From IMG/VR virus record IMGVR_UViG_3300033121_002344, positions 3,888 through 67,887 of that record: a stretch of DNA of 64,000 bases; one strand, given 5' to 3'. Shown here one piece after another: positions 22,421 to 49,387 of the stretch. The DNA is from a virus. Taxonomy: Duplodnaviria; Caudoviricetes. Within the stretch, counting starts at the first letter, position 1. The number at the start of each line of letters is the position of its first letter. The notes beneath the pieces are model-generated. The model made no database searches. It worked only from the letters and a program-made list of their open reading frames with translations, and had not been told where the DNA came from. Made by a program: the position numbers and the translations under genes.

Positions 22421-23191
22421 TCACCGGCTCCGGAGATTGCCGATCGGGGAGGCCGCGGAGGCGATCACGTTCGCGTACTCCTCGGCCGCCGACTTCGCGA
22501 ACCAGGTCGCCATCACCGTGTCGGCCTCGCCGGCCTGCGGGTAGGTGGAGAACTCCCGGTTGAGGACGCACCACGGGCAGCTGTGGCCCGGGGGATGGGA
22601 GGCGAACTCGTCCGCCGGCACCACCCAGGCTCCGTTGTGGAACTCCACCTGGAGGGACCGCAGCCCGAGGGTCGCGTCCACCTTGTTGGCGCCCGTCGTG
22701 GTCGCTTCGACCTTCGCCCAGAAGTCGAAGCTCCCGGGCAGCGCCTGGATCCACTCGATGATGGCGTTCTGGTAGCCGTTGTTCTCCACCCGGAAGACGA
22801 GCGGTCGGTAGAGCTCCTCCACCTGCTGCAGCTGAAGGGCCGTCTCGTGGGACCGCCAGGCTCCGCGCCGGACCTCGACGACGTGCCGCCGCCGGGTGGA
22901 GGGGTTGAGCTTCAGGACCACGATGGCGTTGCCCTTGCGCTTCGCCCCGGAGAGGTCGACGCCGACGATCGCCGGCCAGCTGTTCCGCTGGAGCTCCCCG
23001 ATCGAGACGCCGTGGACGAGGGCCTTGGGCCAGCTGGGAAACCAAAGCTCGTCGTCGACCAGGGCTTCGAGCTCCACGATCCGCCGGTAGGTGCGGTCGT
23101 CCTGAGCCTGGAAGGCTTCGAGCTCCTCCTTCCCCCACTTCTCCCCCCAGAGAGGGATCGACCGCAGCCGGACCGGGACGCCTGCACTCAT
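22421..23191 (-). CDS. terL: Terminase large subunit, nuclease (RNase H-like) half
   Basis: PLWGEKWGKEEL, IVGVDLS, FRVENNGYQ, EFSTYP...DTVMA; no Walker motifs; start uncertain (23191-23236). Confidence 0.8.
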   Translation of the reverse strand: MSAGVPVRLRSIPLWGEKWGKEELEAFQAQDDRTYRRIVELEALVDDELWFPSWPKALVHGVSIGELQRNSWPAIVGVDLSGAKRKGNAIVVLKLNPSTRRRHVVEVRRGAWRSHETALQLQQVEELYRPLVFRVENNGYQNAIIEWIQALPGSFDFWAKVEATTTGANKVDATLGLRSLQVEFHNGAWVVPADEFASHPPGHSCPWCVLNREFSTYPQAGEADTVMATWFAKSAAEEYANVIASAASPIGNLRSR

Positions 23192-23241
23192 CGGCCCGGA
23201 GGGTGGCCGAGCGCGCACCCCGCGCGCAAGAGGCAAGCGGG

Positions 23242-23532
23242 CTAGGAGGACGCCCAGCCGAAGAAGAGCCAGGTGGTGGCGTCGATCTTCAGGCAGCCCG
23301 CCGGGCCGTGCTTGTCCTCGATGCGCGGATCGTCGGCCGAGATGAGGACGTCGATCTGCGCCATGGGAGCCAGGTTCGGATCCCGCTCGATCATCACGAA
23401 GCTGTCCTTCTCCGCGATGGTCCCGGTGTAGCCGCTGTGACCGTACTGGTGGCGCGCTTCCCGGACCGCCGCCTCGAAGGCCTCCTTGGCGGTCTCGCCG
23501 GTGACGAGGGTTGAAAACGTGTTGGCTCCCAT
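23242..23532 (-). CDS. Conserved phage hypothetical protein
   Basis: YGHSGYTGTIAEK motif; AAGGAG SD. Confidence 0.7.
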   Translation of the reverse strand: MGANTFSTLVTGETAKEAFEAAVREARHQYGHSGYTGTIAEKDSFVMIERDPNLAPMAQIDVLISADDPRIEDKHGPAGCLKIDATTWLFFGWASS

Positions 23533-23552
23533 GGCTTCGCTCCTTCGGTTCC

Positions 23553-23876
23553 CTAGAACCAGATGATGATCCCGAGGTCGCCTGCCTGCTCGCAGAGCGC
23601 CTCCAGGGCGTCGATGTACTCGGCCTTCCGGCCCGCGGGCTGCGCGAACTCGACGTACCGGTTCGCGATGACCCCGAGCCGACCGCGGTCCGCGACCGCC
23701 CGCGCGCCTTCGAGGCGCTGGCGCAGGGCCCGCACCCGGATCTCGCCGGTGAGGTCCTCGTTGTAGAGCCCGAGCTCCCGGAGGAGCTCCCCCGCGTTCA
23801 CGCTCGCGAGGTTCAGGTAACCCTCACCGGTCTCGTAGTTGATCTCGATGCCCCGGATCGCGAAGGTCGTGCTCAC
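23553..23876 (-). CDS. Hypothetical protein
   Basis: 107 aa; GTG directly after a promoter. Confidence 0.65.
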   Translation of the reverse strand: MSTTFAIRGIEINYETGEGYLNLASVNAGELLRELGLYNEDLTGEIRVRALRQRLEGARAVADRGRLGVIANRYVEFAQPAGRKAEYIDALEALCEQAGDLGIIIWF

Positions 23877-23883
23877 GGGACAG

Positions 23884-23914
23884 ACAATTAGCGCGAACCA
23901 CGCGCCGGAGTCAA
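23884..23914 (-). promoter_or_regulatory. Host-type promoter (TTGACT-17-CTAATTGT)
   Basis: 7 nt to GTG 23876; nearly identical to the 25540 copy. Confidence 0.7.
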
Positions 23915-23936
23915 CGCCCTCGGACGAAAGAATTGA

Positions 23937-24137
23937 TCAGGCCCGGTACCCGGTCGCCCACTGCCAGGCCGGCACCACAGCCCGCCATTCGGCCGCACGT
24001 TCGTCGTAGTGCTGGGCCAGGGTCGTGAGCCGCACCGCCCGCCCCTGACGCCCCCGTTGGGCCGCACGGGCCGCCAGGAGGCGAGCCCGAAGGGCGCGCT
24101 CCCTCGCCTCCTCGAACAGCCCGATCGCGGTCCTCAC
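23937..24137 (-). CDS. Hypothetical protein
   Basis: 66 aa; 4-nt overlap. Confidence 0.55.
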   Translation of the reverse strand: MRTAIGLFEEARERALRARLLAARAAQRGRQGRAVRLTTLAQHYDERAAEWRAVVPAWQWATGYRA

Positions 24138-24583
24138 CCCTTCCCTCCCAGCTGCTTCACACCATCCGTCACGCTGCCGATGATGCGCCGCCGGAGGTCC
24201 GCGACCTCCTTGGCGCTCATGTCCTGGCTCGAATCCGTCATGGACTCGATGGAGCCGAGGGCCTCACGGAGCGAGCGGGCCTCGCGGTCGATCACCAGGC
24301 CCTTGATGGCCCGGTCGACCGCCCGCGCGAGCGCGACCAGCGCCAGGTCGTCGAACCGCCCCTCCGCGAAGAGCCGGGTCGCCTGGGCCGCCGACGCGAG
24401 CGACTGCTCATCCCGGAAGAGGTCGAGGGTGCTGAGCAGCACCCGGGCCGTGGCCTCGCCGCGGAAGGGCGCGGGTTGGGGAGAGGGCCGAGCGTCGTCC
24501 TGCTCGGCCTGGAGCCCCTCGGTCAGCGCCCGGGCGTGTTCGAGGAGCGAGCGGAGCCGCTGGTTCGCCATGACCATGATCAT
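24134..24583 (-). CDS. Hypothetical protein
   Basis: Start re-called at the ATGA overlap; 149 aa. Confidence 0.6.
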   Translation of the reverse strand: MIMVMANQRLRSLLEHARALTEGLQAEQDDARPSPQPAPFRGEATARVLLSTLDLFRDEQSLASAAQATRLFAEGRFDDLALVALARAVDRAIKGLVIDREARSLREALGSIESMTDSSQDMSAKEVADLRRRIIGSVTDGVKQLGGKG

Positions 24584-24990
24584 CGCACCTCGATCGGCGC
24601 GGTGTCGTCGAGGGCCACGGTCTCCCACTCGCCGAACCGGACCTCCGACCAGCCGATGCGGAGGAGGGCCTCGCGGAGCGTCTGCTCGACCTCGGGTCGC
24701 CGGCCGCGATGCCGGCGGATCTCGACCGGCAGACCCGCCTCGAACCGGACCTCGAAGTCGGTCTCGGTCTCGCGCAGGTAGCCCTCCCTCCGGCGGATCC
24801 AACCGGTCGCCGGCACCCGGACCTCGCCGCGCTTCTCGTCCCGGACCTGGTCGGTCACGACACCATCGACGACCGTGAGCGCCTCCCAGGGCCGAGTCCC
24901 CTGGGGCGGGTTGAGCAGGTAGAGGGTCGTCTTGTTGGGGCGCGGGTCGCGCGCCATGGCATCCGTCAGGGTCTCGTTCCAGGTGGTCAT
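24580..24990 (-). CDS. Hypothetical protein
   Basis: 136 aa; GAGGA SD. Confidence 0.6.
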   Translation of the reverse strand: MTTWNETLTDAMARDPRPNKTTLYLLNPPQGTRPWEALTVVDGVVTDQVRDEKRGEVRVPATGWIRRREGYLRETETDFEVRFEAGLPVEIRRHRGRRPEVEQTLREALLRIGWSEVRFGEWETVALDDTAPIEVR

Positions 24991-25014
24991 CGCCGTCCTC
25001 TTCCTTCCTTCGCG

Positions 25015-25308
25015 CTACCGCGCGAGGGCCGCCCGCAGCTTCGCGGAGATCACGGCCATGGTCGTCTTGGCGCGGAGCGCGTCGAGGTAGTCCGCGAGGA
25101 GGTCGTGCTCGTCGGCGCTCGTCGTGAAGGCCCGGAGGGCCTCGACCGCGCGCCGCGCCCTCTTCCGCGCCTGGGCCTGCTCGCGCGGGTAGAAGACCGG
25201 ACGGGTTTCGAGCGTGCTCAGGGCCTCGATGGCTTCGAGCGCCTGCGCGCAAGCCTCGGTCGCCGCCTGGGTCTTCGCATCTGTCTGGGTGGTGGTCGTC
25301 GTGTTCAT
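25015..25308 (-). CDS. Hypothetical protein
   Basis: GAGGAGG SD; MNTTTTTQTDAK..., 97 aa. Confidence 0.65.
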   Translation of the reverse strand: MNTTTTTQTDAKTQAATEACAQALEAIEALSTLETRPVFYPREQAQARKRARRAVEALRAFTTSADEHDLLADYLDALRAKTTMAVISAKLRAALAR

Positions 25309-25333
25309 GGTGGTCCTCCTCGAACTCTGGGCC

Positions 25334-25534
25334 CTAGGCGATGAGCTTGCCGCGCGCGATCTCCCGCAGCATCTCGACGATGAAGGTCTCGCGCATGTAC
25401 TCGAGCCGCTCGCGAGCCGAGGTGAAGTCGCGCCGCTTGATCTGCTCCCGGAGCTCCGTCGCCATCCGCTCCAAGGAGGCAGCATCCTTCGTGAGGTTGA
25501 CGATGGCTTCGCGGTCCGTTTCCGTGTTGTCCAT
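25334..25534 (-). CDS. Hypothetical protein
   Basis: 66 aa; ATG directly after a promoter. Confidence 0.6.
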   Translation of the reverse strand: MDNTETDREAIVNLTKDAASLERMATELREQIKRRDFTSARERLEYMRETFIVEMLREIARGKLIA

Positions 25535-25539
25535 GACCG

Positions 25540-25570
25540 ACAATTAACGCGAACCACGCGCCAGAGTCAA
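25540..25570 (-). promoter_or_regulatory. Host-type promoter (TTGACT-17-TTAATTGT)
   Basis: 5 nt to ATG 25534. Confidence 0.7.
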
Positions 25571-25583
25571 CGCCCGAAGACCA

Positions 25584-26024
25584 CTATTCGACCGGCTCCC
25601 GGCGGATGACCCACTCGGGCTGGGCTCCGCCCCCGCCGCGGTACTCCTGGCCGGGTTGGAGGTTCCGCAGGTGCGCGACCTCCAGGGCGTCGAGGTCGGG
25701 GTTGTCGGCCAGGAAGGCGTGGAGGTCGACCGGCTCCCCGTCGAGGGTCCAGCGCCGCGGAGGGAAGGGCCGCAGCTGGTCGAGCCCGATGCCCCGCCAG
25801 GTGACCAGCTTCCCCTCGGAGAGGTTCCGGCCCCACCCCTGGACGGTCGCGGTCGTCCGGTAGACCCGCAGGACGTCAACCGCCTGGTCGCCCCAGAGGG
25901 CCCGGTCGCCGGGCTTGAGGGCCGAGCCGTCAAGCAGCGCCGGCTCACGCTCCAGCGCCCGACGATCGCCGCCCGCCTCGACCACCCGAAGCGCCGCCCG
26001 CATCGCGTTTGACAGCCGCTTCAT
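25584..26024 (-). CDS. Hypothetical protein
   Basis: ATGA overlap; 146 aa. Confidence 0.55.
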   Translation of the reverse strand: MKRLSNAMRAALRVVEAGGDRRALEREPALLDGSALKPGDRALWGDQAVDVLRVYRTTATVQGWGRNLSEGKLVTWRGIGLDQLRPFPPRRWTLDGEPVDLHAFLADNPDLDALEVAHLRNLQPGQEYRGGGGAQPEWVIRREPVE

Positions 26025-26512
26025 CGCCCCGTCCCCGCGGCTTCGACGATCGCTTCGCGCTGCGCCTGCGCCTCCCGGCACTCGTCGCAGAACTCGAGGG
26101 ACGAGATCCCGGCGAGCGCCGCCCGCGAGGACCCGCTGACGAGCGTCCCGTGGTCCTCGCAGACCGCCGTCCACCCGCAGCCCTCCTCCGACTCCAGCCC
26201 CGCCTCCTTCGAGCGGTAGAGACCGACGATGGTGCCCGTGGTGCGGCACCGGCGGAGGCTCACGCAGCCCGCCCGCGCCTTCGCTTCCTGGGCCCGCGCC
26301 TGCCCCACCCACCGTGTGAAGGCCCGAGAGGCGATCAGCCCGTAGCCCTTCGGCCCGGGCCCGCCAGCAGGCCGGCAGAAGGGCAGGGCCAGGTAGGCGG
26401 TCCGGAGCTCCTGCTCCCGGGCCAGGGTGCAGGTGGCCACTTCCCGCGCGTGGCTCTCCAGGAAGGCGAGGGCCTGGTCGACTCGTTCGTTCGCGTTCAT
26501 CGCCTCCTGCAT
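26021..26512 (-). CDS. Hypothetical Cys-containing protein
   Basis: 163 aa; WTAVCEDHG...FCDEC. Confidence 0.6.
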   Translation of the reverse strand: MQEAMNANERVDQALAFLESHAREVATCTLAREQELRTAYLALPFCRPAGGPGPKGYGLIASRAFTRWVGQARAQEAKARAGCVSLRRCRTTGTIVGLYRSKEAGLESEEGCGWTAVCEDHGTLVSGSSRAALAGISSLEFCDECREAQAQREAIVEAAGTGR

Positions 26513-26513
26513 C

Positions 26514-27014
26514 TCAGGCCTGCGCCTTCGCCGCGAAGCGGATGTGCTCGAAGCGGACCTTCGTGGTGCTGGGGGTGCTGGGCCGCTCGCCCCGCTTCGC
26601 CGCCGCCCGGACCTGGTAGGTGTAGAAGAAGGCCACCTCGGCGCGGGTCTCCATCACCTTCGTGATCGTCCCGCTGCGCCAGCCGCTCGGCGAGGAGGCG
26701 CTCCGGAAGAGGACCTTGGCGCCAACCCGCGGCTTCAGGCACCCGTTCGCCTCGCAGTACCCGGCGAAATGAGCCTCGATCCGCTCGTCGCTGCTGGCTT
26801 CGAGCAGGAGGCTGGCCGACCCGGAGGCCCCGCCTTCGAAGACCACCCGGGTCTCCAACCCCTCACCCTGGAGCTTCGCGCGGATGCCCGAGCCCGGGCG
26901 CTGGAGCCGGTGCAGGAGGGCGTCGATGGTGGCGAGCCGGGCGCGGAGCGCCTCGTGGCGGGCCATGTCCAGGTTCGCGCGGTAGGTCTTCGTGGTGTTC
27001 GCCGTCGTGTTCAT
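26514..27014 (-). CDS. Hypothetical protein
   Basis: Start re-called to ATG 27014 directly after a promoter. Confidence 0.6.
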   Translation of the reverse strand: MNTTANTTKTYRANLDMARHEALRARLATIDALLHRLQRPGSGIRAKLQGEGLETRVVFEGGASGSASLLLEASSDERIEAHFAGYCEANGCLKPRVGAKVLFRSASSPSGWRSGTITKVMETRAEVAFFYTYQVRAAAKRGERPSTPSTTKVRFEHIRFAAKAQA

Positions 27015-27020
27015 GTCCGT

Positions 27021-27050
27021 ACAATTAAAGCGTACGGTGCGCGAACGCAA
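27021..27050 (-). promoter_or_regulatory. Host-type promoter (TTGCGT-16-TTAATTGT)
   Basis: 6 nt to ATG 27014. Confidence 0.65.
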
Positions 27051-27069
27051 GTCCCTTCGCGTCGAATCT

Positions 27070-27456
27070 TTAGGCCGGGAGGACGAGGTCGGGGTAGCGC
27101 CCGTGGGCGCGCCTGCGGGCCCGGATGAGGAGCCCCTCCACCCAGGGGAAGAGGGGCTCGCCCGGAGAGGCCTGGAAGGCCACCACGGCCGCGCTGCAGA
27201 GCACCAGGAGCTCGACCGCCAGCCCCGCGGGGTCACGGCCACCCATCATCCCCGCGCCCCACCGGAGCCGCGCTGTGGTCTCACAGGCCCCGAGGCTGCG
27301 GAGCGCGCAGGAGAAGCGAGCCTCGGGGTCGATCTTGCAGCGCCGGAGCAGCTGGGCCTCGTGCTCCAGCCCGGCCCGCCGGCAGACCGCCGCGGTGTAG
27401 CGGAAGAGGAGCTCGACCGCCGCCAAGGCTTCGGGCCGGTCGTCGGCCTCGCTCAC
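27070..27456 (-). CDS. Hypothetical protein
   Basis: GTGA overlap; 128 aa. Confidence 0.55.
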   Translation of the reverse strand: MSEADDRPEALAAVELLFRYTAAVCRRAGLEHEAQLLRRCKIDPEARFSCALRSLGACETTARLRWGAGMMGGRDPAGLAVELLVLCSAAVVAFQASPGEPLFPWVEGLLIRARRRAHGRYPDLVLPA

Positions 27457-27842
27457 GAGGGCCGCCCGCGCCGGTCGGTCAGGATGATCACCGGGGTGTC
27501 GGACCACTCTGGCTCCGGGGCCGGCGGGACGTCGGACCGGAAGGCCGCGAGGATCATCCCGCAGATCTGCTCGCTGATCTCGGCCATCCAATGCCGCTGC
27601 TCGTCGGTCCCGCGCCCGAGCCGTTCGTCGAGGTAGCGGCTCAGGGCCCGCACGGCACCCGCCTGGGCGGTCATCCGCGCAGGGGTGGCCTCGGGCTCCG
27701 CCTGATGGACCGCGAGGCCTCGGGCCATCATCGCGTGGAGGAGCGAGGTGACGTCCTTCAGGGTGGCGTCGGTCTCTTCGGCGAGGTGGCGACTCACGAA
27801 GGCTTCGAGCTCGGCTGGGGTGAGGGTGCTGAGATCAGGCAT
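27453..27842 (-). CDS. Hypothetical protein
   Basis: 129 aa; GATGAT box 6 nt before ATG. Confidence 0.6.
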   Translation of the reverse strand: MPDLSTLTPAELEAFVSRHLAEETDATLKDVTSLLHAMMARGLAVHQAEPEATPARMTAQAGAVRALSRYLDERLGRGTDEQRHWMAEISEQICGMILAAFRSDVPPAPEPEWSDTPVIILTDRRGRPS

Positions 27843-27849
27843 GAGCCGA

Positions 27850-28086
27850 TCATCGCTCCAGGAGCTTGCGCGCCGCCGGCACCACGACCTCGTGGCGACC
27901 GACGCTCTTGTAGACCATCCAGTGGTCGTCGCGCGCCCGCAGGGAGACCGCGCCCTCGGCGAAGACGAGATCGATTGTCCGCGGGACACCCGCCCGCAGC
28001 ACCACCTCCGCCGTGAGCCCGAGCTCCACGAGCCGCCTCAGCAGGTGATCGAGAAGCTCCTCCGGCGAGAGGATCGGGGCCGTCAC
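27850..28086 (-). CDS. Hypothetical protein
   Basis: 78 aa; 4-nt overlap. Confidence 0.55.
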   Translation of the reverse strand: MTAPILSPEELLDHLLRRLVELGLTAEVVLRAGVPRTIDLVFAEGAVSLRARDDHWMVYKSVGRHEVVVPAARKLLER

Positions 28087-28274
28087 AGGGCCTCCTTCGA
28101 CTTCGCCCGCATCCGCTCCGTGATCACCTGGACCAGCATCAGGTCCGCCTCGGTCAGCTTCCGGAACGCCACCCAGGCCCGCTGGTACTCCTCGGTGCTG
28201 AGGGTCTCGTCGGCGCAGAGCCCCTCCAGGGTGGTGTCGACGAGCTCGTCCTTCTGTCCGCGGTCCATCGGCAT
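28083..28274 (-). CDS. Hypothetical protein
   Basis: 63 aa; GGGAGG SD. Confidence 0.6.
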   Translation of the reverse strand: MPMDRGQKDELVDTTLEGLCADETLSTEEYQRAWVAFRKLTEADLMLVQVITERMRAKSKEAL

Positions 28275-28288
28275 CGGTGCCTCCCTAT

Positions 28289-28300
28289 CAACCCGGGTTG
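28289..28300. repeat. Dispersed palindrome copy 5 (TAT-core-CTT)
   Basis: Exact core, intergenic, next to an SD. Confidence 0.95.
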
Positions 28301-28351
28301 CTTCGTCCAGTCGCGCGAGCCCCGGGGAGCCCGCGCGACCAGGAGCCCCGC

Positions 28352-28675
28352 TCAGCGGCAGACGATCTCGACCGCGCGCCCGAGGTCGAAGACCCCGTGG
28401 GTGAGGGCCGTGTTGTCCCGCCAGATGATCTGGAGCTTGTCGCCCTCCAGGTCGATCACCCCATCGCGGAGGAGCTTCGCCGCGCCCTTCGAGGCCGGCA
28501 CCACCGCGAGGCTGCCGGGGTTGAGGTTCCAGACCCGAGCCTCCGCCCGGGCCTCCTCCTCGGTCTGCCCGTGGCCCCAGGCCACCAGCCGGGAGCCGTT
28601 GGATCCGATCGCCACCTGGAGCCGCTCATCGGCTCGGGCGCGCTTCGCGTGGGTGTGGGTGCGGGTTGCGGTCAT
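28352..28675 (-). CDS. Hypothetical protein
   Basis: AAGGAGG SD; MTATRTHTHAK..., 107 aa. Confidence 0.65.
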   Translation of the reverse strand: MTATRTHTHAKRARADERLQVAIGSNGSRLVAWGHGQTEEEARAEARVWNLNPGSLAVVPASKGAAKLLRDGVIDLEGDKLQIIWRDNTALTHGVFDLGRAVEIVCR

Positions 28676-28701
28676 GGGGTCCTCCTTCGTGAGCGCCCGG
28701 G

Positions 28702-29026
28702 CTACCGGGTCAGGTTGGCGAAGATCTGGTCGATGAAGCCTGCGAGCGTGATCGCCTCGGCCCGGGTGCCTCGGGCCGTCTCGATGGTGACCACGTTGTT
28801 GGTCGACGCTCGGCATACAGAGCTTCCCGTTCGGGAGGCCCGCGGCCTTGTAGGCCCGCAGGTAGAGGCTCACCAGCATGTGGCTGGCCGCCGTCGAGAG
28901 GATCTCGTCCGAGCCGTCGAAGGTGACCCGCACGTAGGCGTTCCCGAACTCCGAGGTCCGAACCTCGACCTTGTGCGAGGGCTCGGGGGAGGGAGCGGGC
29001 TTCCGGGTGGCGATCGCGTTCTTCAT
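28702..29026 (-). pseudogene. Small gene with an apparent 1-nt insertion near 28801
   Basis: 325 nt from ATG to TAG; coding-like codon use switches frame at GTC-GAC-C-AAC-AAC. Confidence 0.5.
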
Positions 29027-29032
29027 GCCCGT

Positions 29033-29062
29033 ACAATTAAAGCGATTTGCGCGCGAACGCAA
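29033..29062 (-). promoter_or_regulatory. Host-type promoter (TTGCGT-16-TTAATTGT)
   Basis: 6 nt to ATG 29026. Confidence 0.65.
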
Positions 29063-29098
29063 GTCCCGCTTGCGCGAATTGTACGAGGCGCGCCCGGG

Positions 29099-29917
29099 CT
29101 ACCCGTCCGACCGCACCGACCTTCGCCGCGCCCGGGGAGCCGGCTGGGAGGGCGCGGGTTGGGCTGGAGCCGGGGGAGGCTGGGGACCTTCGATCTCCGC
29201 CCAGGAGCGCCCACAGGGCCCGCAGGGGACCTTCAGGAGCAGGCCGTGGGGGCAGACGTCGGTCCGGGGCCGCTTGTGGGTCCAGCGGTACCCGCAGGAG
29301 CACTCGAAGGTGGTGACGAGGTGGAACATGTCCAGGCTGCCGTCGGGCAGCCGCTCGCTCATCACCGAGCAGACCATCGGCTGGCCCGGGGCCGGCTGGG
29401 CCTCGCAGACCGGGCAGACGCGCGGGTCGACCGGGCGCGCCGCGGGCTTGGCGAGGCGCGCTTCGAGGCGGTCATGCTCGAAGGCCGAGTCCTGCTCCAG
29501 GATCGTCCGGGCCGCTTCGGCGCGCTCCTCGTCCTCCGTTGGAGGTGCCGCATCGGCGAGGGCCTCGCGCTCCAACGAGACATTCTCCGCGATCCACCGC
29601 TGGGCGATCCGAGCCGCCTCCACGTACTCGCGCGAGGGCGAGAGCGTCTCCTCCTGACCGGGCCGGTAGGTCGACCAGATCTTGTCGCGGATCGACCTCG
29701 GGAGCCGGTACCAGTGGTCCCGACAGCCCCACCGCGCCGGAGGCACCTGCCGAGGGCAGCCCGGCCAGTGGCACCTGTGGTCGCGCTCCTGCTTCGCCGC
29801 CCGGACATGCTCGACCTTCTCGGCGAGCGGGATCTGCGCGGTCGGGGTCGCCTCCGTGGGGAAGTTGGCCCGCGCAGGCTTCGGGGCTCCGAAGAGGTCC
29901 AGCTGATCGTCACCCAT
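29099..29917 (-). CDS. Phage protein with two Cys/His clusters
   Basis: HRCHWPGC...VPP..WGCRDHWYRLP...YRPGQ, then CPVC and CSCG. Confidence 0.65.
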   Translation of the reverse strand: MGDDQLDLFGAPKPARANFPTEATPTAQIPLAEKVEHVRAAKQERDHRCHWPGCPRQVPPARWGCRDHWYRLPRSIRDKIWSTYRPGQEETLSPSREYVEAARIAQRWIAENVSLEREALADAAPPTEDEERAEAARTILEQDSAFEHDRLEARLAKPAARPVDPRVCPVCEAQPAPGQPMVCSVMSERLPDGSLDMFHLVTTFECSCGYRWTHKRPRTDVCPHGLLLKVPCGPCGRSWAEIEGPQPPPAPAQPAPSQPAPRARRRSVRSDG

Positions 29918-30085
29918 CGTCCTGATCATCGCGCCGGTCGGTCGAAGACGCCGGGCCCACGTCGCTCACCACCGCGGCGAAGTGGGCCTCGGGTCGAGCG
30001 GGGCGGAGGGTGCAGGACCAGCGACCAAAGGACGGCGCGGAACCACTGCTGAAGGAATCGGTCGCGCTCGCTCACCAACAGAGCT

Positions 30086-31021
30086 TCACCACTCCGGCTT
30101 CTTCCCCGCGAGGATGTTCGACGTGTTCCGCTGCCGACGGGCCTGTTCGGCCTGCGAGGCCTTCCGAGCCTTGTCGGCCTGGTGGTCCGCGAAGGAGTGG
30201 TACTTCTTTCCGGGCCCGTAGCCCATCCTGCTCTGCAGGGCCTTGTCGGCCTTGTCCTTGGCGGCGAGGTGCGCCCGCACCGCCTCCCGGTTGACCGAGT
30301 CGGCCTTCGGTTTGGCTTCGGCCTTCGACCCCTTGGCCGCCGCTTCCTTCAGCGCCGGCACCTCGTCCTTGGAGTCCGCGTGGACGCGCGACTTGTCATC
30401 GACCCAGACCCGATGACCCTTCTCGGTCTCGAAGGCGCGGACCGGGGTGCCATCGTGGTTCGAAGTACCCGTCTGCGACGACGAGAAGTAGGTCTGCCCA
30501 CCGAACTTCATCGAGAGCGCGTCGCGCCCCTTACCATGGGTCTCGCCCTCGGCCTTCCCGACCACGAGCGGATGTTCCTCCGTACCCTTTCGGTCTCTCG
30601 CGACCGCCCGATCACGCACCTCCTCTTCACGCGCCAAGTGATCCATGACCTTGTTCCCGTGCGCCCGCACCTCGCCTTCGTGATGCGCCGCGAGGAGCTT
30701 GCCCTCGATCGAACCACCGAGAGCGTGCGCCGCGGTTGCCGCCGCGTGATGCGCGTTGACGGCAGCCTCATGCGCCTCACGAGTCCCCAGCTTCTTGGCG
30801 TTGGCGGAGGCTGCGTTGGCCGCCTGATGCAGATCCGCAAACGAAGGGTCCTTCTTCTTGCTCTTCTCGGCGCCCTTCGCCGAGCCCTTCGGGGCGGAGC
30901 TTCCGTCGTCCTTCTTGCCCTCGGCCCACCGGACCCACTTCCCCTCCGCGACCTTCTTGAAGGTCCCGCCGGAGCGCTCCCGGGTCTCGCCGATCTCTGC
31001 TCTGCCCTTGCCGTCCGTCAT
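30086..31021 (-). CDS. Basic, His/Ala-rich protein; possible internal head protein
   Basis: GETRERSGGTFKKVAEGKWV N-terminus; HEAAVNAHHAAATAAHA segment; SD present. Confidence 0.6.
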   Translation of the reverse strand: MTDGKGRAEIGETRERSGGTFKKVAEGKWVRWAEGKKDDGSSAPKGSAKGAEKSKKKDPSFADLHQAANAASANAKKLGTREAHEAAVNAHHAAATAAHALGGSIEGKLLAAHHEGEVRAHGNKVMDHLAREEEVRDRAVARDRKGTEEHPLVVGKAEGETHGKGRDALSMKFGGQTYFSSSQTGTSNHDGTPVRAFETEKGHRVWVDDKSRVHADSKDEVPALKEAAAKGSKAEAKPKADSVNREAVRAHLAAKDKADKALQSRMGYGPGKKYHSFADHQADKARKASQAEQARRQRNTSNILAGKKPEW

Positions 31022-31068
31022 GGATCCCTTCCTCGCACGTCCGAGCCCGGAGGCTCAAGGGACGGCTA

Positions 31069-31674
31069 TCAACCCGGGTTGTTTGCGCTCGCCAGCATCC
31101 CCTCGATCTCCGCCAGCCGCGCGAGGAGCTTCGCCTTCTCGGCGAGGAGCGCTTCGCGCCCAGCCTCCCCGACCTGGCGGAGCCGGCGGATCTCGGCCAG
31201 CCAGTCGGTGACCCGCACCGACCGGAGGACCACCGACCCGACCTCCAGCGACTCCGACCAACGCTCGACCTCGATCGGCTCGTCCTGGTTCTTCGCCAGC
31301 TGCTCGGTGAGCGTTCGATCGAGCGCCGCGATCCGCAGCTGCCGACCGATCTCGCTCGCGTCATCGCCGTCCTCGATCCGCCGCGCAACACCCATCGCTT
31401 CATCGCGGTCGAGCCGCGTGACCCGCAGCCCCTTCGCGTCCCGCCACACCAGCGGGAAGAGGTCCTTCTTGTTCCCCTTCCGGTCGACGTCCCGCTCCGC
31501 GTAGAGCCCCGGCTCGTCCACGAGCTCCTCGGTCATCTCGCCCCGCTTCCCGGAGCGTCGCCCGATGAAGGAGAGCGCGAGCCCCCACTTCGGGTCACGG
31601 CCCGTCACGCGAGCCACGTACTGTCCGGTGTGCCCGTAGGCTGCCTCCGCGTAGAGACGAATCGTGTTGCTCAT
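31069..31674 (-). CDS. Hypothetical protein
   Basis: 201 aa; ends NNPG* inside the palindrome. Confidence 0.65.
   Translation of the reverse strand: MSNTIRLYAEAAYGHTGQYVARVTGRDPKWGLALSFIGRRSGKRGEMTEELVDEPGLYAERDVDRKGNKKDLFPLVWRDAKGLRVTRLDRDEAMGVARRIEDGDDASEIGRQLRIAALDRTLTEQLAKNQDEPIEVERWSESLEVGSVVLRSVRVTDWLAEIRRLRQVGEAGREALLAEKAKLLARLAEIEGMLASANNPG
31070..31081. repeat. Dispersed palindrome copy 6 (TAT-core-TTT)
   Basis: Exact core; supplies the TGA stop of 31069-31674. Confidence 0.95.
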
Positions 31675-31699
31675 CTGATCCTTCTTTCCGGTCGCCGGC

Positions 31700-31981
31700 T
31701 CAGCCGACGAACCCGAGCTTCGTCGCGATCTCAAAGTAGCGATCCGAGTCCGTGAGGTCGGTCGACCAGTCGTCGCCCAGCCGGCGCTTCGTCTCCCGGT
31801 AGGCGTCCGTCCGCTTGCCCCGCGCCGTCGGGAGGTGGTTCAGGCGCTCGACCGTGTGCGGGTAGGGGTAGCGGGCCTCGCGGACCTCGTGCTGGAAGAT
31901 CCCCTCGATCCCGTCGAGGGTGGCGCGCTTCCCGTGCAGGAAGGCGAAGACCTGGTTCGTGGTGCTCTCGGCGCTCTTCAT
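31700..31981 (-). CDS. Hypothetical protein
   Basis: 93 aa; ATG directly after a promoter. Confidence 0.6.
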   Translation of the reverse strand: MKSAESTTNQVFAFLHGKRATLDGIEGIFQHEVREARYPYPHTVERLNHLPTARGKRTDAYRETKRRLGDDWSTDLTDSDRYFEIATKLGFVG

Positions 31982-31987
31982 GCCCGT

Positions 31988-32017
31988 ACGATTAACGCAC
32001 GGAGCGCGCGAACGCAA
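31988..32017 (-). promoter_or_regulatory. Host-type promoter (TTGCGT-16-TTAATCGT)
   Basis: 6 nt to ATG 31981. Confidence 0.65.
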
Positions 32018-32042
32018 GTCGCCTCTTCGACTATTCGGCCCT

Positions 32043-32531
32043 TCAGTAGAGGCCGCCGGGGACCCAACCCCCAGGCCCATCGTCCTCTGGGGTGGTCACG
32101 TTCCCGGCATCGAGCCAGGCCTCCAGGTAGCGATGGAGCTCCTGCACCTGGGCCCGGTCGAGAGCCGTGCGGGAGCGGTCGAGCCCGACCGCGAAGACAA
32201 GGTACTGCTGCGGACCCAACGGCTCGGGTGGTGGGCTGCGCAGGGTGTCGACGAGAGTGGGGCCCGCCGCCGATGGAGCAGGGACCGGGGGAGCGCTGGC
32301 GCGCGCCTTCCGGACCCGCAACACCTGGGCGTCGAACCGGTCGCCGCTGTGGAGCTCAAGCTCCCAAGGGAGCGGCTCCCGGGCGAGGTCGTTCACGGGC
32401 TCGTCGAAGAGCATCAGGTTTTGGAGGGCGAGCAGCCCTTCGCGGAGCGGCTCGGGGACGGTGAAGCCGCGGATGAGCCCGAAGAGCAGCTGACGGATGG
32501 GGCGCTCGATCTCGAGCCACGAGCGGGTCAT
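32043..32531 (-). CDS. Hypothetical protein
   Basis: ATGA overlap; 162 aa. Confidence 0.55.
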   Translation of the reverse strand: MTRSWLEIERPIRQLLFGLIRGFTVPEPLREGLLALQNLMLFDEPVNDLAREPLPWELELHSGDRFDAQVLRVRKARASAPPVPAPSAAGPTLVDTLRSPPPEPLGPQQYLVFAVGLDRSRTALDRAQVQELHRYLEAWLDAGNVTTPEDDGPGGWVPGGLY

Positions 32532-32875
32532 TCGACCACCACCCTTCGGACCCGGCGAGCGCGAGGGGCCTCGACCGCGGGTTGGGCCTCCGTGGGCTCC
32601 ACAACGGCTTCGGCCGCCGGGAGGACCGGGAGCCCCCTCCGGGCCAGGAAGGCCGGCGGAGGGGCCTTGGTGGCGCCCTTGTCGCGCTTCGGCCGGGAAC
32701 CAAGCCGGAAGGGGTGGAGCGGACACTCGGTGGTGTCACAGCTGCGGACCTCGCTGCCCTGGCCGCCCATGCACTCCAGGCAGAAGAGCCGGATCGCCGG
32801 GAGGGGCTTGGTCTGGGCCCGGAGGGCCATCTTGGGCAGCTTGGCGCGGATGGAGGCGATCAGTCGGTGGAACAT
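32528..32875 (-). CDS. Small Zn-binding phage protein
   Basis: AIRLFCLECMGG..EVRSC....CPLHPFRLG. Confidence 0.65.
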   Translation of the reverse strand: MFHRLIASIRAKLPKMALRAQTKPLPAIRLFCLECMGGQGSEVRSCDTTECPLHPFRLGSRPKRDKGATKAPPPAFLARRGLPVLPAAEAVVEPTEAQPAVEAPRARRVRRVVVE

Positions 32876-32905
32876 GGGTCGATCATCACCTGATCGACCC
32901 GCGGC

Positions 32906-34045
32906 CTAGAAGGGGACGCTCGCGTCCGCGACGGGCTCCGGCATCCCGTCGTGTTCGACCTGGCCGATCCCCTCCTCGACGATGCGGGCGAGGTCGCCGA
33001 TCAGCGGCAGGCCGTGCGTCTCCTCCGAGCGCCGCAGGTAGCGGACGATCGCCGCCCGCTCCTGGCCGGCCCGCTGCTTCTCCTCCTCCACGAGGCTGCG
33101 TTGGTGGTCGCGCTCCTGTTCGAGCTCGGAGATCCGAGTCGAGTCCTCCATCCGCTCGGCCGCGAGCGCCTGGACGTTGCCCTGGAGCTCCGCGTAGCGC
33201 TCCTGCAGCCGCATGAAGGCGCGGTCCTTCGCGTTCTCCAGGTCCTGCATGAGATCGCCCGTCGTGCGGCGCCTGATCGACACCCGGTCGGCGTACGCAC
33301 CGGTCTCGATCAGGTGAGCCAGGCGTCGGATCGGCTGGGGGTGCTCGGTCGGCATCGGGCCGGTGGACTCGACCAGGAAGCGCGCGATCCGCAGCCGCTC
33401 CTCCCGGATCTCGAAGTGGCAGGCCGCGGGAGGCTTCGCCCCTTCGCGCTCGACCGGAGGGTGCTGCGCGACCGCATCGACCAGGTTGCCGTTGCGCGTG
33501 AAGCTCATGCTCGCGCCCACGTCGCGTGGCCAGGACGGCTCGGGCACGCTCACCACCACCCTCGGCTTCAGGACCTCGGAGAGCCCCGCATCGGCGAGGA
33601 CCCCGAGGTCGGGATCCGTCGGAGCGTCGTCGATCGACAGCCAGGTGATCGACCGCAGCTGATGCCCGAGCAGTTCGAGCTCGCCCTTCCGCGGGCCTCC
33701 GTCGTGGAGGTACTCCTCGTAGCCTCGGGCCGCCTGGCGCACCACACCGCGCAGAGCTCCGCGCTCCGCCAACGCCTGGCGGAGCATCGCGAGCGGACTG
33801 CCCTCGTCGAGCTCGGCTCCGAAGAGCTCCATGGTCAGCAGCTTCAGGTGTTCGAGGTGCGGCTGGAAGAACCGCAGGAGCGACCGGCCGATCTGCTCGG
33901 CGCTCGTGCTCTCGAAGACGCCGGTCGGGATGGTCGACCAGCACATGGAGGCCTGGCCGATCGCCGTGAAGACCTCGTGCTTGACGCTGTCGGGTTCGGG
34001 GTGGGTGGGGAAGATGGGGTCCGGTGGAAGGGGGCTGGTTGCCAT
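32906..34045 (-). CDS. Hypothetical multi-segment protein with coiled coil
   Basis: 379 aa; N-terminal AIGQASMCW...GVFES. Confidence 0.65.
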   Translation of the reverse strand: MATSPLPPDPIFPTHPEPDSVKHEVFTAIGQASMCWSTIPTGVFESTSAEQIGRSLLRFFQPHLEHLKLLTMELFGAELDEGSPLAMLRQALAERGALRGVVRQAARGYEEYLHDGGPRKGELELLGHQLRSITWLSIDDAPTDPDLGVLADAGLSEVLKPRVVVSVPEPSWPRDVGASMSFTRNGNLVDAVAQHPPVEREGAKPPAACHFEIREERLRIARFLVESTGPMPTEHPQPIRRLAHLIETGAYADRVSIRRRTTGDLMQDLENAKDRAFMRLQERYAELQGNVQALAAERMEDSTRISELEQERDHQRSLVEEEKQRAGQERAAIVRYLRRSEETHGLPLIGDLARIVEEGIGQVEHDGMPEPVADASVPF

Positions 34046-34066
34046 GCCCCGATCATCACGCCTCGC

Positions 34067-34372
34067 TCAGGAGTGCCGAAGGGCGCGCGTGAGCTCGATC
34101 TCGATGTTCTGCCACACCTGCTGGCGCTCGGCGGCGAGGGCCGTCCAGCGCTCCGGGATCTTCTTCTTCCGCCCGTTCGCCTCCTCGACGGTCCGGAAGG
34201 TCACGTAGCCGGGGAGGGCGCGCCGGAGCCGCAGGTCGTGGGGCTCCGGGAGGATCTTCCGGTTCGTCATGCAGTCGATCCCGGGACTCGAGCCGCACCG
34301 TGGGCAGGTGACGGTGAGGGCCCTCGCGAAGAGGTTGAGGGCGACAGGTTCGATCGGTTCGGTGGTCGTCAT
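34067..34372 (-). CDS. Zn-finger-like hypothetical protein
   Basis: VTCPRCGSSPGIDC...PHDLR; start could be 34480. Confidence 0.55.
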   Translation of the reverse strand: MTTTEPIEPVALNLFARALTVTCPRCGSSPGIDCMTNRKILPEPHDLRLRRALPGYVTFRTVEEANGRKKKIPERWTALAAERQQVWQNIEIELTRALRHS

Positions 34373-34476
34373 GGGTCGATCTTCACGCCTTCGAAGGAGG
34401 CCGAGCGGCTCGGGCCCGAGGAAGATGCTCCGCATCGCCAGGTGCTCCCGGAAGGCGTCCTCGTGCTCTTCCCAGG

Positions 34477-34794
34477 TCATCGGCCCACCCGCCCCCGTAG
34501 GCAGCCCAGGCCCGCCTCTGTGAAGCTCAGCCGCCCGTGGTCGTCGACGGTCGCGAAGCCGAGCTCGATCAGACTGTCGAAGTCGGGCCGGTAGAAGGGG
34601 TTGTGGAGCCAGCGGTAGACCTTCGAGAAGGCGATGCAGGCGAGCCGGATCTCCCGCGCGTCGACCGGTACGAAGGCGTCGTGCCAGGCTCGGCACGTCA
34701 CGACGAGGATCGCCGCCGCCACCTCCCGTTCGACTCGGCCGAAGGTGTCGGGGAGCGGGAAGTCGGCGCGGATGAGGACGTCGGAGGGCCGCAT
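34477..34794 (-). CDS. Hypothetical protein
   Basis: 105 aa; overlaps the upstream stop. Confidence 0.55.
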   Translation of the reverse strand: MRPSDVLIRADFPLPDTFGRVEREVAAAILVVTCRAWHDAFVPVDAREIRLACIAFSKVYRWLHNPFYRPDFDSLIELGFATVDDHGRLSFTEAGLGCLRGRVGR

Positions 34795-35249
34795 CACGCC
34801 ACCTCGCCGATCAGCCGAAGCATCTCGCCCACCATCCGCTTCGCAAGCCCGCGTTCGTCGAGCCGGCCTTGGAGCTCGGCCCGCCAGAGGTCTTCGAGCC
34901 GGGGCCACCTCGACCGCAGGCACCACTGGTCCTGGGCCACTTCCTCGTTCGGGAGGTGGAAGGCCGACTCGCGGATCAGCAGGAGCTCCAACGGGGTCAG
35001 GCTTCGCCAGTGGACGTCGGTGGGGTTCGGGCTGTCCTCGGGGTCGGCGGTCGAGGCCTCGAAGTCCACCACCCAGAGCCCGGCTGCGTTCGGGGGCTCG
35101 CCGAAACCGAGGACCTGGAGGTCGAGCGCGTGCCTGGTGGTCGCCAGGTCGAAGAGGACCGTCCGGCCGAACGCGAAGAGGACGATCGCGTAGTCCGGGG
35201 TGTCGCGGTTCCAGGAAGGCGAGAGCGCGACCAACACCCGCTCACGCAT
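34794..35249 (-). CDS. Hypothetical protein
   Basis: 151 aa. Confidence 0.55.
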   Translation of the reverse strand: MRERVLVALSPSWNRDTPDYAIVLFAFGRTVLFDLATTRHALDLQVLGFGEPPNAAGLWVVDFEASTADPEDSPNPTDVHWRSLTPLELLLIRESAFHLPNEEVAQDQWCLRSRWPRLEDLWRAELQGRLDERGLAKRMVGEMLRLIGEVA

Positions 35250-35562
35250 AGTCCCGCCCTTCGGCGCAGTAGGGGCAGCGCTCGCATTCGGCGCAGAGGT
35301 GGCCGGCCTCGTAGCGATCGCCGCACCCCTCGCAGTCGACCGAGCGCCCGACCTCCCGCAGGTAGAGGGCCGCGAGGGCGATCGCGAAGATGAGCACCCA
35401 GGCCGCCCAGACCTCGAAGCCGCCGACAGGCAGCGGTCGGGCGCGCCACATCAGGAGCGCCCGGTGCCCTATGTCGCCCAGGAAGCCGTCGAGCAGCAGG
35501 CCGAACACGAGGCCGCGCCGCCAGGCCTTCGAGACCCGCTCCGGTTCGAGCCCGAGCCTCAC
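35242..35562 (-). CDS. Small membrane protein with a C-terminal Cys cluster
   Basis: Hydrophobic WAAWVLIFAIALAALYL; CEGC...CAECERCPYC. Confidence 0.5.
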   Translation of the reverse strand: MRLGLEPERVSKAWRRGLVFGLLLDGFLGDIGHRALLMWRARPLPVGGFEVWAAWVLIFAIALAALYLREVGRSVDCEGCGDRYEAGHLCAECERCPYCAEGRDYA

Positions 35563-35759
35563 GACCCACCCCCGACCAGCCCCGCCTGTATCGCCTTCTC
35601 CACCACCGGGTCGCCCTTGGAGTCGACGATCCGCACGTCGCTGACGCCCTCGTAGCCGCCGATATCGGCCGCCTCGGTGTTCGCTTGCTCGCGCGTCTTG
35701 AAGGGGCCGGCCGTCCGTCGACCGAAGCCCTGAACCTGGTAGGCCACGTAGAACCACAT
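35559..35759 (-). CDS. Hypothetical protein
   Basis: 66 aa; GATGAT box. Confidence 0.6.
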   Translation of the reverse strand: MWFYVAYQVQGFGRRTAGPFKTREQANTEAADIGGYEGVSDVRIVDSKGDPVVEKAIQAGLVGGGS

Positions 35760-35766
35760 GCACCGA

Positions 35767-36282
35767 TCATCGCCCGTGGGCGACCGTCGTGCGCCCGCTC
35801 CTGCGCGTGCCGTCGAGGACCGTCAGCACCCGCCCCTGCACCCCGAAGCGGTCCTTGATCTCGCCCTTCGCGATGCCGGTGAGGATCGCGAGGCCCGCCG
35901 GCAGAAGCGAGTAGGTCCCTCGACCGCTTCGGGCCGCCCACTTCTTCCGGGTGAGCCGAACCAGCATCGCCCGCGCCGTCGGGATGCTGCAGCGGAGCTC
36001 CACCCGAATGTCGTAGGAGCGAACGTTCGGTCTCTCCAGCAGCACCACCAGCGCCCGCACCGAGGGGACGGTGAGCCGGAGCCGGCGCATCGCGCAGTAG
36101 CGGCAGAGCTTCCCGACCCCTCGCCGCATCGCCCGACCGCGGACCGCGATCCGCCGGCCGCAGCGGCAGACGGTCCACCAGTAGGCGGAGCGTGAGGTCC
36201 CACGGCTCGGGGCCCGCTCCTGGACCTGGCGACCGCCGATCGTCCGCCCCTCCATGGGGACGGCCTTCGAGAAGCGCCCCAT
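35767..36282 (-). CDS. Putative DNA-binding protein (Cys motif plus winged-HTH-like segment)
   Basis: YWWTVCRCG...KLCRYC; SYDIRVELRCSIPTARAMLVRL. Confidence 0.5.
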   Translation of the reverse strand: MGRFSKAVPMEGRTIGGRQVQERAPSRGTSRSAYWWTVCRCGRRIAVRGRAMRRGVGKLCRYCAMRRLRLTVPSVRALVVLLERPNVRSYDIRVELRCSIPTARAMLVRLTRKKWAARSGRGTYSLLPAGLAILTGIAKGEIKDRFGVQGRVLTVLDGTRRSGRTTVAHGR

Positions 36283-37127
36283 CAGAGCTCGACGGGCTCG
36301 ACCGCGATGCTTCGGCGCGCCAGCGCTCGCTCAAGTCGTGGGAGCGGGTAGTCGTCCCGGGCGTTGTAGACGTACTGCTCGATACAGGTCTTGTCCTTCG
36401 AGACGGGCTGCCAGAGGACGCACCAGGCCGGGCGCGCCCGCAGCTTGTGGGTGTGGTCCTCGTTGTGCCACGGGTTGGCGGTCCAGATGACCCGACCCGT
36501 CGGTTCCAGCCGGCTCATCCACACCGAATCAACCCGGGTTGTTACCGCCTCCCGGCGCTCCTCGGTGAGGCTGTTCTCGCGCGAGACCGTGTCGTCGAAG
36601 ATCAGGAGGTCGGCTCGACCGCCGGTGCCGGCGCTCATCACCCCGTAGGCTTTGACGGTGGGGTCGACCGAGAAGCCGGGGCGCTCCAGGAGGATCTCGT
36701 GCTGCGTGAACTCCTCACCTTTGCGGCGCGTCGTCCGCTTGCCGGGCCGCACGTTGGGGAAGGTGGCCCGGTAGGCTGCGTTCTTCGAGATGAGCTCCGC
36801 CACCGCCTCGACCCGCTCGGAGGCGACGTCATCGACCGAGCTCACCACCTTCACCCGCAGCGAGGGGTCACGCCCGATCTCCCAGGCGATGCGGGCGATC
36901 AGGCCGATCGTCTTCCCGTGGTTGACGGGCGCGATGAAGGCCGGGTGGAGGCCGTGGCTCCAGCAGTATTCGAGGTGGACCTGCCAGGTGACGTGGAGGG
37001 GCGCCATGGCGAGCGGTCGATCGTCCTTGTCCCGCATGACGAACGGGAAGAAGCGATCGAAGCGCCCCCGGGCCTCCTCGGCCCGCATCGCGATCGCGTA
37101 CCGGGCCGCCGTGGCGAGACCGCTCAC
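36282..37127 (-). CDS. terL: Terminase large subunit, ATPase half
   Basis: APVNHGKT (Walker A), GTGGRADLLIFDD (Walker B), WTANPWHNED (motif III); ends at 281 aa; GGAGGAG SD. Confidence 0.85.
   Translation of the reverse strand: MSGLATAARYAIAMRAEEARGRFDRFFPFVMRDKDDRPLAMAPLHVTWQVHLEYCWSHGLHPAFIAPVNHGKTIGLIARIAWEIGRDPSLRVKVVSSVDDVASERVEAVAELISKNAAYRATFPNVRPGKRTTRRKGEEFTQHEILLERPGFSVDPTVKAYGVMSAGTGGRADLLIFDDTVSRENSLTEERREAVTTRVDSVWMSRLEPTGRVIWTANPWHNEDHTHKLRARPAWCVLWQPVSKDKTCIEQYVYNARDDYPLPRLERALARRSIAVEPVEL
36530..36541. repeat. Dispersed palindrome copy 7 (AAT-core-TTA)
   Basis: Exact core inside the TerL ATPase gene (encodes TTRVD). Confidence 0.95.
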
Positions 37128-37750
37128 GTCTCCTCCAGGTCCTTGATGCGTTGGACGGCCGCCCCGACCCCGGCCTGGAAGCTCGGGTCCTCGGAGACGA
37201 GCGCCGCCGAGAGGGCCTGCTCGACGCAGCGAGCGCGCTCCTTGCGTCGATCGTCGTCGACGGTACGCACTTGCGCCTCGACGGGTGCGTTGACGCGCTC
37301 GACGAGACGCTCCAACCGGGCCACCTCCGAGGTGCTCCCGACGAACATCGAACGCACGAGGTCGGCCGCGCGCGCTCGCTCCTGTCGCCGGACGTCCGCC
37401 TCCATGTAGCGGATGATGCCTCCGCGCTCCCAGAGGTCCAGGGCCGCCTGGAGATCGCGCTCGCGCAGTCGCAGCCGGCGGATCTCGACGGCGGCGAGCG
37501 TGTGCAGGCTCGGCCCGAACTCGTCCGAGTGGGTGCCCATCGAGACGAACCCGTGGTTGTCGAACAAGGTGTGGCGCTTCGCCTCCTCGCCGCAGTGGCA
37601 GACGTCGGAAGGCTTCGCGTCTTCGCGTTCGCCCTCCGCCTCGACGAGCTTGAGCGTCTCGTCGGGCATCGCGGGTCGGCAGCGCAGGTCGAGCTCTTGC
37701 GAGAGGACAGCGCGCTCGGTGTCGGTCGGCGGGAAGCCGGGAGAGCTCAT
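37124..37750 (-). CDS. Hypothetical protein
   Basis: 208 aa; CHCG...H..H motif; GATGAT box. Confidence 0.6.
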   Translation of the reverse strand: MSSPGFPPTDTERAVLSQELDLRCRPAMPDETLKLVEAEGEREDAKPSDVCHCGEEAKRHTLFDNHGFVSMGTHSDEFGPSLHTLAAVEIRRLRLRERDLQAALDLWERGGIIRYMEADVRRQERARAADLVRSMFVGSTSEVARLERLVERVNAPVEAQVRTVDDDRRKERARCVEQALSAALVSEDPSFQAGVGAAVQRIKDLEET

Positions 37751-43138: not shown

Positions 43139-43147
43139 GCCCGATCT

Positions 43148-47768: not shown

Positions 47769-47817
47769 GCGCCCCTTGGCGTGACCGGGAGGCGCGCCGA
47801 AGTCAAGGGCGCCCCTA

Positions 47818-49377: not shown

Positions 49378-49387
49378 GACCTGATCA

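Follow-up and report, generated by a model that had tools for sequence, protein, structure and literature searches.

The large terminase (TerL), a single-chain enzyme, is the hallmark of tailed phages and herpesviruses, and virus detection, taxonomy and estimates of completeness make use of it as a marker. Here we describe a TerL that is encoded by two open reading frames (ORFs), which have separate start and stop codons and are 13.2 kb distant from each other, in a 64,000-nucleotide stretch of viral DNA (the window) that corresponds to bases 3888-67887 of the 67,887-bp linear IMG/VR record IMGVR_UViG_3300033121_002344, a metagenome contig of an uncultured virus. A previous inspection of the letters and ORFs of the window (the sequence-only reading) had proposed that the two genes specify a naturally two-subunit large terminase. 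The comparisons reported below support this proposal by the complete folds of both halves, their conservation in a clade of relatives and the lack of any detected joining element, and from these we infer assembly in trans.

Among the described systems the T7-type one-chain TerL (T7 gp19, also called 'DNA maturase B'; PhiV-1 TerL, 8dgc chain E; T7 model 4bij) has the same ATPase fold and motifs (Z 22.7) and the same nuclease fold (Z 15.0) as the window's two genes, and the same domain order is kept in most relatives. The window's nuclease gene also resembles the T7 type in its position in the head/packaging block next to the portal gene. In contrast to the T7 type, the window's chain is broken at a point equivalent to ~254/255 of PhiV-1 TerL, and the virus, with its contractile-tail sheath gene and a genome of ~68-88 kb, is no podovirus of the T7 type. 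One-chain metagenomic relatives (a 569-aa ORF at locus L038, and P0013 and P0018 with a Terminase_6C domain, PF17289) are 35-36% identical to each half, but consist of a single ORF where the window has two.

The phi29 packaging protein gp16 is likewise a stand-alone ATPase of the additional-strand, conserved-glutamate (ASCE) class and of similar size, and its N-terminal domain matches the window's ATPase half with Z 11.5. Phi29 packages protein-primed unit-length DNA with the packaging RNA (pRNA) and needs no nuclease, whereas the window's phage keeps a conserved terminase nuclease gene with intact catalytic residues. Two inteins are carried by the TerL of cyanophage Mic1 (PMC7156551), and 'fractured genes' with split inteins have been described (PMC2677866). 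An intein- or intron-interrupted terL resembles that of the window in that foreign DNA interrupts the terminase coding sequence; there the interruption is removed and one chain restored, whereas in the window no splicing element was detected and the interruption comprises 13 kb with about two dozen genes. No description of a natural two-gene ATPase/nuclease TerL was found in a full-text literature search in which subscription journals were thinly covered; the search did yield inteins, introns, translational bypassing in the terminase of Streptomyces phage Hau3, and the name 'terminase ATPase subunit' used for P2.

The two halves and the DNA between them are the following (evidence in brackets; GC3 is the GC content at third codon positions).

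36282..37127, minus strand: TerL-N, the stand-alone terminase ATPase gene, protein P0001, 281 aa (phrog_38, phmmer, AlphaFold2, VIA)
23237..35766, minus strand: intervening block of about two dozen small co-oriented ORFs (ORF and GC3 calls)
22421..23191, minus strand: TerL-C, linker and RNase H-like terminase nuclease, 256 aa from the ATG at 23191 (phrog_38, AlphaFold2, VIA)

P0001 matched positions 258-473 of the TerL profile phrog_38 (E 7e-33) and also phrog_4758, a 243-position 'TerL' profile of the ATPase only, and a phmmer search aligned it to PhiV-1 TerL (8dgc_E) at E 2.7e-10. In alignments A1, A2 and A4 there is little or no variation at the Walker A residues G71 K72 T73, at the Walker B residues D178 D179 or at W220/H221, and the split forms show no variation at all at Walker A, Walker B and the other ATPase residues. 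With its conserved GKT and FDD motifs the protein has the ASCE P-loop ATPase domain of a TerL. Its AlphaFold2 model (predicted local distance difference test score, pLDDT, 89.7; predicted template modelling score, pTM, 0.87) contains the complete ATPase fold, in which residues 5-273 correspond to residues 2-254 of PhiV-1 TerL 8dgc_E (VIA Z 22.7, root-mean-square deviation (rmsd) 3.3 Å over 243 residues); the next structural matches were the ATPase domains of T4 gp17, T7 gp19, HK97 and P74-26. The gene starts with a GTG that is preceded by a GGAGGAG Shine-Dalgarno sequence and forms a GTGA overlap with the stop of the upstream ORF, and it ends with TGA. In comparison with the 73%-identical counterpart on contig L098, the nonsynonymous (dN) and synonymous (dS) divergences were 0.227 and 0.718, a ratio of ~0.32 that is probably an overestimate given the strong constraint on GC3; the ATPase half is under purifying selection (dN/dS ~0.3). 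An alignment had hinted that the tail of the ATPase half is a duplicated copy of the linker, a reading contradicted by a one-chain relative, in which this tail aligns with the equivalent segment. In two relatives, G003 (L091:533-2518) and G006 (C1:29886-31883), the ATPase half is interrupted directly behind Walker A by ~1.2 kb of in-frame sequence, which in G003 is a genuine intein (Intein_splicing and LAGLIDADG_3) and in G006 is similar.

For the nuclease half, the longest ORF (P0002) extends from 22421 to 23236 on the minus strand with an alternative TTG start at 23236, and it matched positions 485-683 of phrog_38 (E 4e-10). As its homologues start with a Met and 5-15 residues ahead of a conserved 'PLW' motif, the ATG at 23191 is likely to be the start rather than this TTG. 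Numbered from the ATG, D79, E136 and D224 form the acidic triad of a TerL nuclease and are invariant in 60 sequences. The AlphaFold2 model (pLDDT 89.1, pTM 0.83) was matched over residues 44-254 to the nuclease domain of G20c TerL (VIA Z 17.0, rmsd 2.5 Å over 165 residues) and to residues 295-538 of 8dgc_E (VIA Z 15.0), and RuvC-type resolvases reached only Z ~10. Because residues 44-254 map to this part of 8dgc_E, residues 1-43, modeled as two helices with a PLW..W..L...RGF-like motif, are on the predicted structure the inter-domain linker, equivalent to about residues 255-294 of the one-chain PhiV-1 TerL. The stand-alone nuclease proteins of alignment A3 end, after a variable tail, in a nearly invariant C-terminal Arg (codon and stop at 22421-22426 in the window). 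C-terminal residues of T3 and T7 gp19 matter for prohead docking, and by analogy this Arg may be a prohead-docking residue. Both assignments of the sequence-only reading, an ATPase-only gene at 36282-37127 and a linker plus nuclease at 22421-23191, were thus borne out, together with its statement that the motifs of both are intact.

The phrog_38 matches at 258-473 and 485-683 imply that the two ORFs hold contiguous parts of one TerL model. The halves also tile the one-chain L038 protein in BLASTP alignments, where ATPase residues 4-267 correspond to its residues 40-302 and nuclease residues 11-239 to its residues 313-547, leaving only ~10 of its residues between them uncovered by either half. 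Nothing is lacking and nothing is extra at the break, which is located exactly at the domain boundary. A full-length terL elsewhere in the genome, a possibility raised by the sequence-only reading, was looked for and not found: the whole 67.9-kb record contains no other match to phrog_38, TerL_ATPase (PF03354) or Terminase_6N (PF03237), and none of the relatives rated 90-100% complete has a full-length terL.

Single-protein scans of viral contigs for relatives yielded little, alignment-based profile scans found loci in IMG/VR, and a metagenome scan added one short contig, L098. Stand-alone ATPase proteins recovered by protein searches are 258-333 aa long and 40-73% identical to that of the window, compared with ~35% for the nearest one-chain forms. 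When the nuclease half was used in an exhaustive HMMER search, 805 cluster representatives were returned; the best 150 of these 805 include 65 stand-alone proteins that start at the same point of the linker and 67 one-chain forms. Stand-alone nuclease proteins are ~245-285 aa long, and stand-alone halves are common in protein databases. Profile searches of IMG/VR gave 85 loci, at which TerL is a single ORF (51 loci), an adjacent pair of genes (6), a pair with a gap of 0.5-2.2 kb (3) or, at the others, a far-apart pair or a nuclease gene with no ATPase gene within the available flank.

The halves are separate and non-adjacent in ten other independently assembled virus records, nine of which have the same order at distances of 5.5-18 kb and one a swapped order. 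The ATPase half is located upstream of the nuclease half on the same strand by 10.5 kb in G001, 13.6 kb in G002, 13.0 kb in G003, 15.8 kb in G004, 13.9 kb in G005, 18.0 kb in G006, 15.1 kb in G007 and 15.3 kb in G008; by direct overlap of loci the distance is 5.5 kb in UViG_3300037851_000185 and 14.2 kb in UViG_3300014205_000200. In G010 (L035:9962-12410), the nuclease half of which was detected with the A3 profile only, the order is nuclease, ~1 kb, ATPase and, ~6 kb further on, portal. Three loci (L032-L034) have nuclease genes near-identical to that of G010 and no ATPase gene in the available flank. A completeness of 100% is assigned to G005, G008 and G010; the first two contain exactly one of each half according to phrog_38, and all examined records rated 90-100% complete carry both halves. 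Homologues of the window's portal protein (35-47% identity) and MuF-like protein (overall 35-55%) come after the nuclease half in the relatives, which are therefore true relatives, and the GC contents of seven of them, spread over 47-69%, imply different hosts.

Split and one-chain forms are intermingled in the trees of the wider family, with at least 28 changes between them, 13 of which are forced by well-supported branches, and the domain boundary has therefore been broken or rejoined many times. In the nuclease-domain tree of the IMG/VR loci the window falls into a 97%-supported clade of 25 that has no one-chain member and is composed of 11 far-apart pairs, 11 loci with no ATPase gene in the available flank, 2 adjacent pairs and 1 swapped pair. 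The adjacent pairs (L022 and L027) are nested in the clade and remain unfused, with separate start and stop codons: the junction of L022 consists of a TGA stop, a 14-nt spacer and an ATG, and that of L027 of a GTGA overlap. Since the halves move relative to each other and are never re-fused within this clade, they behave as independent cistrons.

With separate ATPase and nuclease genes conserved in this way, the packaging motor is most likely built from two protein chains, and we assign a probability of roughly 0.78 to a large terminase in which two chains come together non-covalently. TerL-N, with its complete ASCE ATPase domain, would be translated by coupling to the upstream ORF at 37124-38134 and be made with the upstream genes, and TerL-C, the gene of which heads the portal/head block, would be made with the head genes. 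On the portal or procapsid the two chains would then bind each other non-covalently, most probably by docking of the conserved N-terminal linker helices of TerL-C (motif 'PLW..W..L...RGF') against the ATPase domain. The resulting motor would be capable of both DNA translocation and DNA cutting, and the space between the two genes would serve as a fast-changing landing site for accessory genes. Some observations weigh against a two-chain enzyme. The ATPase and nuclease domains of T4 gp17, expressed separately and mixed, reportedly did not reconstitute packaging, so that a dedicated interface would be required if the enzyme consists of two chains. Moreover, the nuclease gene comes after a 50-nt gap and, as the sequence-only reading had noticed, is not preceded by a GGAGG-like Shine-Dalgarno sequence, and the CheckV completeness of the window's record is 84%.

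A division of labour without a stable complex, in which TerL-N alone would be the motor in the manner of phi29 gp16 and TerL-C a free, late-expressed nuclease for cutting or debranching that would meet DNA by itself or via the portal, is considered unlikely. It would agree with the placement of the two genes 5-18 kb apart, adjacent or in swapped order, with the different translation signals of the halves, and with the resemblance of the RNase H-like fold to RuvC-type resolvases (Z ~10). However, the nearest structural matches of TerL-C are terminase nucleases (Z 15-17), well above the resolvases, and TerL-C retains the conserved linker, which packs on the ATPase domain in one-chain enzymes. 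According to the title of Hilbert et al. (2017; PMC5389665) the ATPase domain grips DNA so that the nuclease domain can cleave it, which speaks against a free nuclease, as does the presence of both halves in every examined record rated 90-100% complete.

Joining of the halves to a normal one-chain TerL, whether by a split intein, by recoding or by intron halves that splice in trans, is very improbable. Inteins do occur in the lineage, as in the ATPase half of G003 and presumably in the similar insert of G006, and the former served as a positive control: it was found by Pfam (Intein_splicing and LAGLIDADG, residues 80-462), thus inteins of this lineage are detectable, and they are located elsewhere and do not bridge the halves. 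In the window itself Pfam gave no match to either half and no intein domain at E values up to 1, and no Rfam family reached its gathering score anywhere, known group I/II introns thus being undetected, in agreement with the sequence-only reading, which had seen neither an intron nor a split intein. A 'fractured' gene with a split intein has the N-terminal intein piece (IntN) at the C-terminus of its first half and the C-terminal piece (IntC) at the N-terminus of its second, whereas the ATPase tail and the nuclease head of the window are homologous to one-chain sequence and, because the halves tile L038 with ~10 residues left, there is no room for such pieces. In the relatives a separate start codon of the nuclease gene (ATG or GTG) immediately precedes the linker motif. 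The exons flanking a group I/II intron keep their order on a single transcript, and the roughly two dozen ORFs within the 13-kb gap and the swapped order in G010 also argue against an interrupting intron.

A chimeric assembly, or a defective phage with terL broken by insertion, is scarcely credible, for although the window derives from a single metagenome contig that is 84% complete and has no end repeats, misassembly (which the sequence-only reading had considered) is excluded by ten other records of independent assembly, three of them rated 100% complete, in which the halves are also apart, and both frames are intact with invariant catalytic residues, the ATPase half is under purifying selection and the GC3 of the halves fits the genome.

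Two further genes near the ATPase half may concern packaging.

35767..36282, minus strand: 171-aa Cys-rich ORF, the ATG of which overlaps the ATPase stop (TGATG); matches the HNH endonuclease family phrog_374 at E 6e-4 only
40336..41079, minus strand: candidate small terminase (TerS), 247 aa, with an N-terminal helix-turn-helix (HTH)-like segment; 3.2 kb upstream of the ATPase half

HNH-assisted (HK97-type) terminases require for cos cutting an HNH endonuclease, the gene of which neighbours those of the terminase; in the window the HNH match of the ATPase-coupled ORF at 35767-36282 is weak and Pfam gave no match above cut-off. Its only homologue among the relatives, 30% identical, is found directly upstream of the nuclease half in G004, and the ORF past the ATPase stop on L098 is unrelated to it. 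This ORF possibly encodes a packaging accessory or a homing-type endonuclease, and it may be part of the packaging set. The candidate TerS has only a weak HTH match (phrog_769, E 6e-4) and no Pfam match, and a 30%-identical homologue is located directly upstream of the ATPase half in the relative L005.

The sequence-only reading had placed about 30 unrelated small genes between the halves. They are indeed small and nearly unshared with relatives, but their number was overstated, as ~20-27 plausible minus-strand ORFs were counted, among which PHROG and Pfam families are nearly absent. An all-against-all BLASTP comparison with the equivalent blocks of seven relatives gave a handful of weak matches only, and by this sequence comparison the block is a hypervariable accessory region and not a conserved module. 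The promoters that the sequence-only reading had ascribed to these genes were not confirmed: a scan of 21.5-38.5 kb for sigma-70 promoters and terminators performed no better than chance, the sigma-70 consensus being uninformative. The box GYGANGAT occurs 48 times in the window against 20 ± 4 expected (2.4-fold), with 36 of the 48 on the minus strand, and is often located 6-7 nt ahead of a start codon, within the block for example ahead of the starts at 32875, 34045 and 35759. The window-wide box scan found none in either terminase half.

32882-32889, 34052-34059, 43144-43151, 49384-49391 and 53725-53732, minus strand: examples of the GYGANGAT box (box scan)

The GC content is ~70% all along the window and the credible genes are all on the minus strand with a GC3 of 0.85-0.98, the two terminase halves (0.91-0.93) being no exception in this genome. 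Read along the coding strand, the gene order runs from a replication block (DnaB-like helicase, primase, helicase, family-A-like DNA polymerase, UvsX-like recombinase and two ParB-methyltransferase genes) through small genes to the ATPase half, and then over ~13 kb of further small genes to the nuclease half, past which come four small ORFs and the following head and tail genes.

18495..20219, minus strand: portal gene, heading the head/tail genes 2.2 kb downstream of the nuclease half (PHROG portal match)
13871-15799, minus strand: MuF-like head protein, MuF/SPP1 gp7-like, 642 aa (PHROG head match)
9084-10469, minus strand: major capsid protein (PHROG head match)
4194-5897, minus strand: tail sheath (PHROG sheath match)

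The tail sheath among these genes identifies the virus as a contractile-tailed phage. In the MuF-like protein the match to head-morphogenesis families is confined to the first ~300 residues, its C-terminal half being an extra domain, and a deoxyribonucleoside 5'-monophosphate phosphatase-like (HD-type) gene (17467-18096, minus strand; phrog_318, E 2e-61) is located between portal and head genes. In the replication block the neighbouring, overlapping genes at 45724-47046 and 47043-47912 (minus strand) both have ParB-like N-terminal domains, which in the former is fused to a DNA methyltransferase (phrog_498, E 4e-106). No cultured relative was found by tblastn against 50,697 deposited phage genomes, where the ATPase half matched distant one-chain T7-like terminases only and the nuclease half had no match. 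A search of genome contigs gave four distant matches only, in metagenome-assembled genomes of Armatimonadota, Sumerlaeota and Gemmatimonadota, and provides no host call for the window's phage.

As a practical matter, pipelines that expect a single terL of ~500 aa will miscall such genomes, and Pfam matched neither half. Avs-type defence proteins recognise TerL, and the best structural match of the ATPase half, 8dgc, is an Avs3-TerL complex; a two-chain TerL raises the question whether Avs-type sensors still recognise it. If the two-chain reading is true, the split would put the nuclease under separate control in dose and timing, and would open a tolerated insertion site that is filled with fast-changing accessory genes. 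It would also provide a natural experiment on the dispute over translocation, in which a force produced as the ATPase and nuclease domains move against each other (the T4 gp17 model) is contrasted with a force generated within the ATPase ring, and a system for structural biology with two activities that are separable without engineering. It is an evenly balanced proposition that a whole clade of contractile-tailed phages with genomes of 60-90 kb and GC contents of 47-70% runs its packaging motor with separate ATPase and nuclease chains and no covalent hinge. A conserved two-chain form would mean that in nature motor and nuclease can do without a covalent link, with the linker helices as the candidate non-covalent interface.

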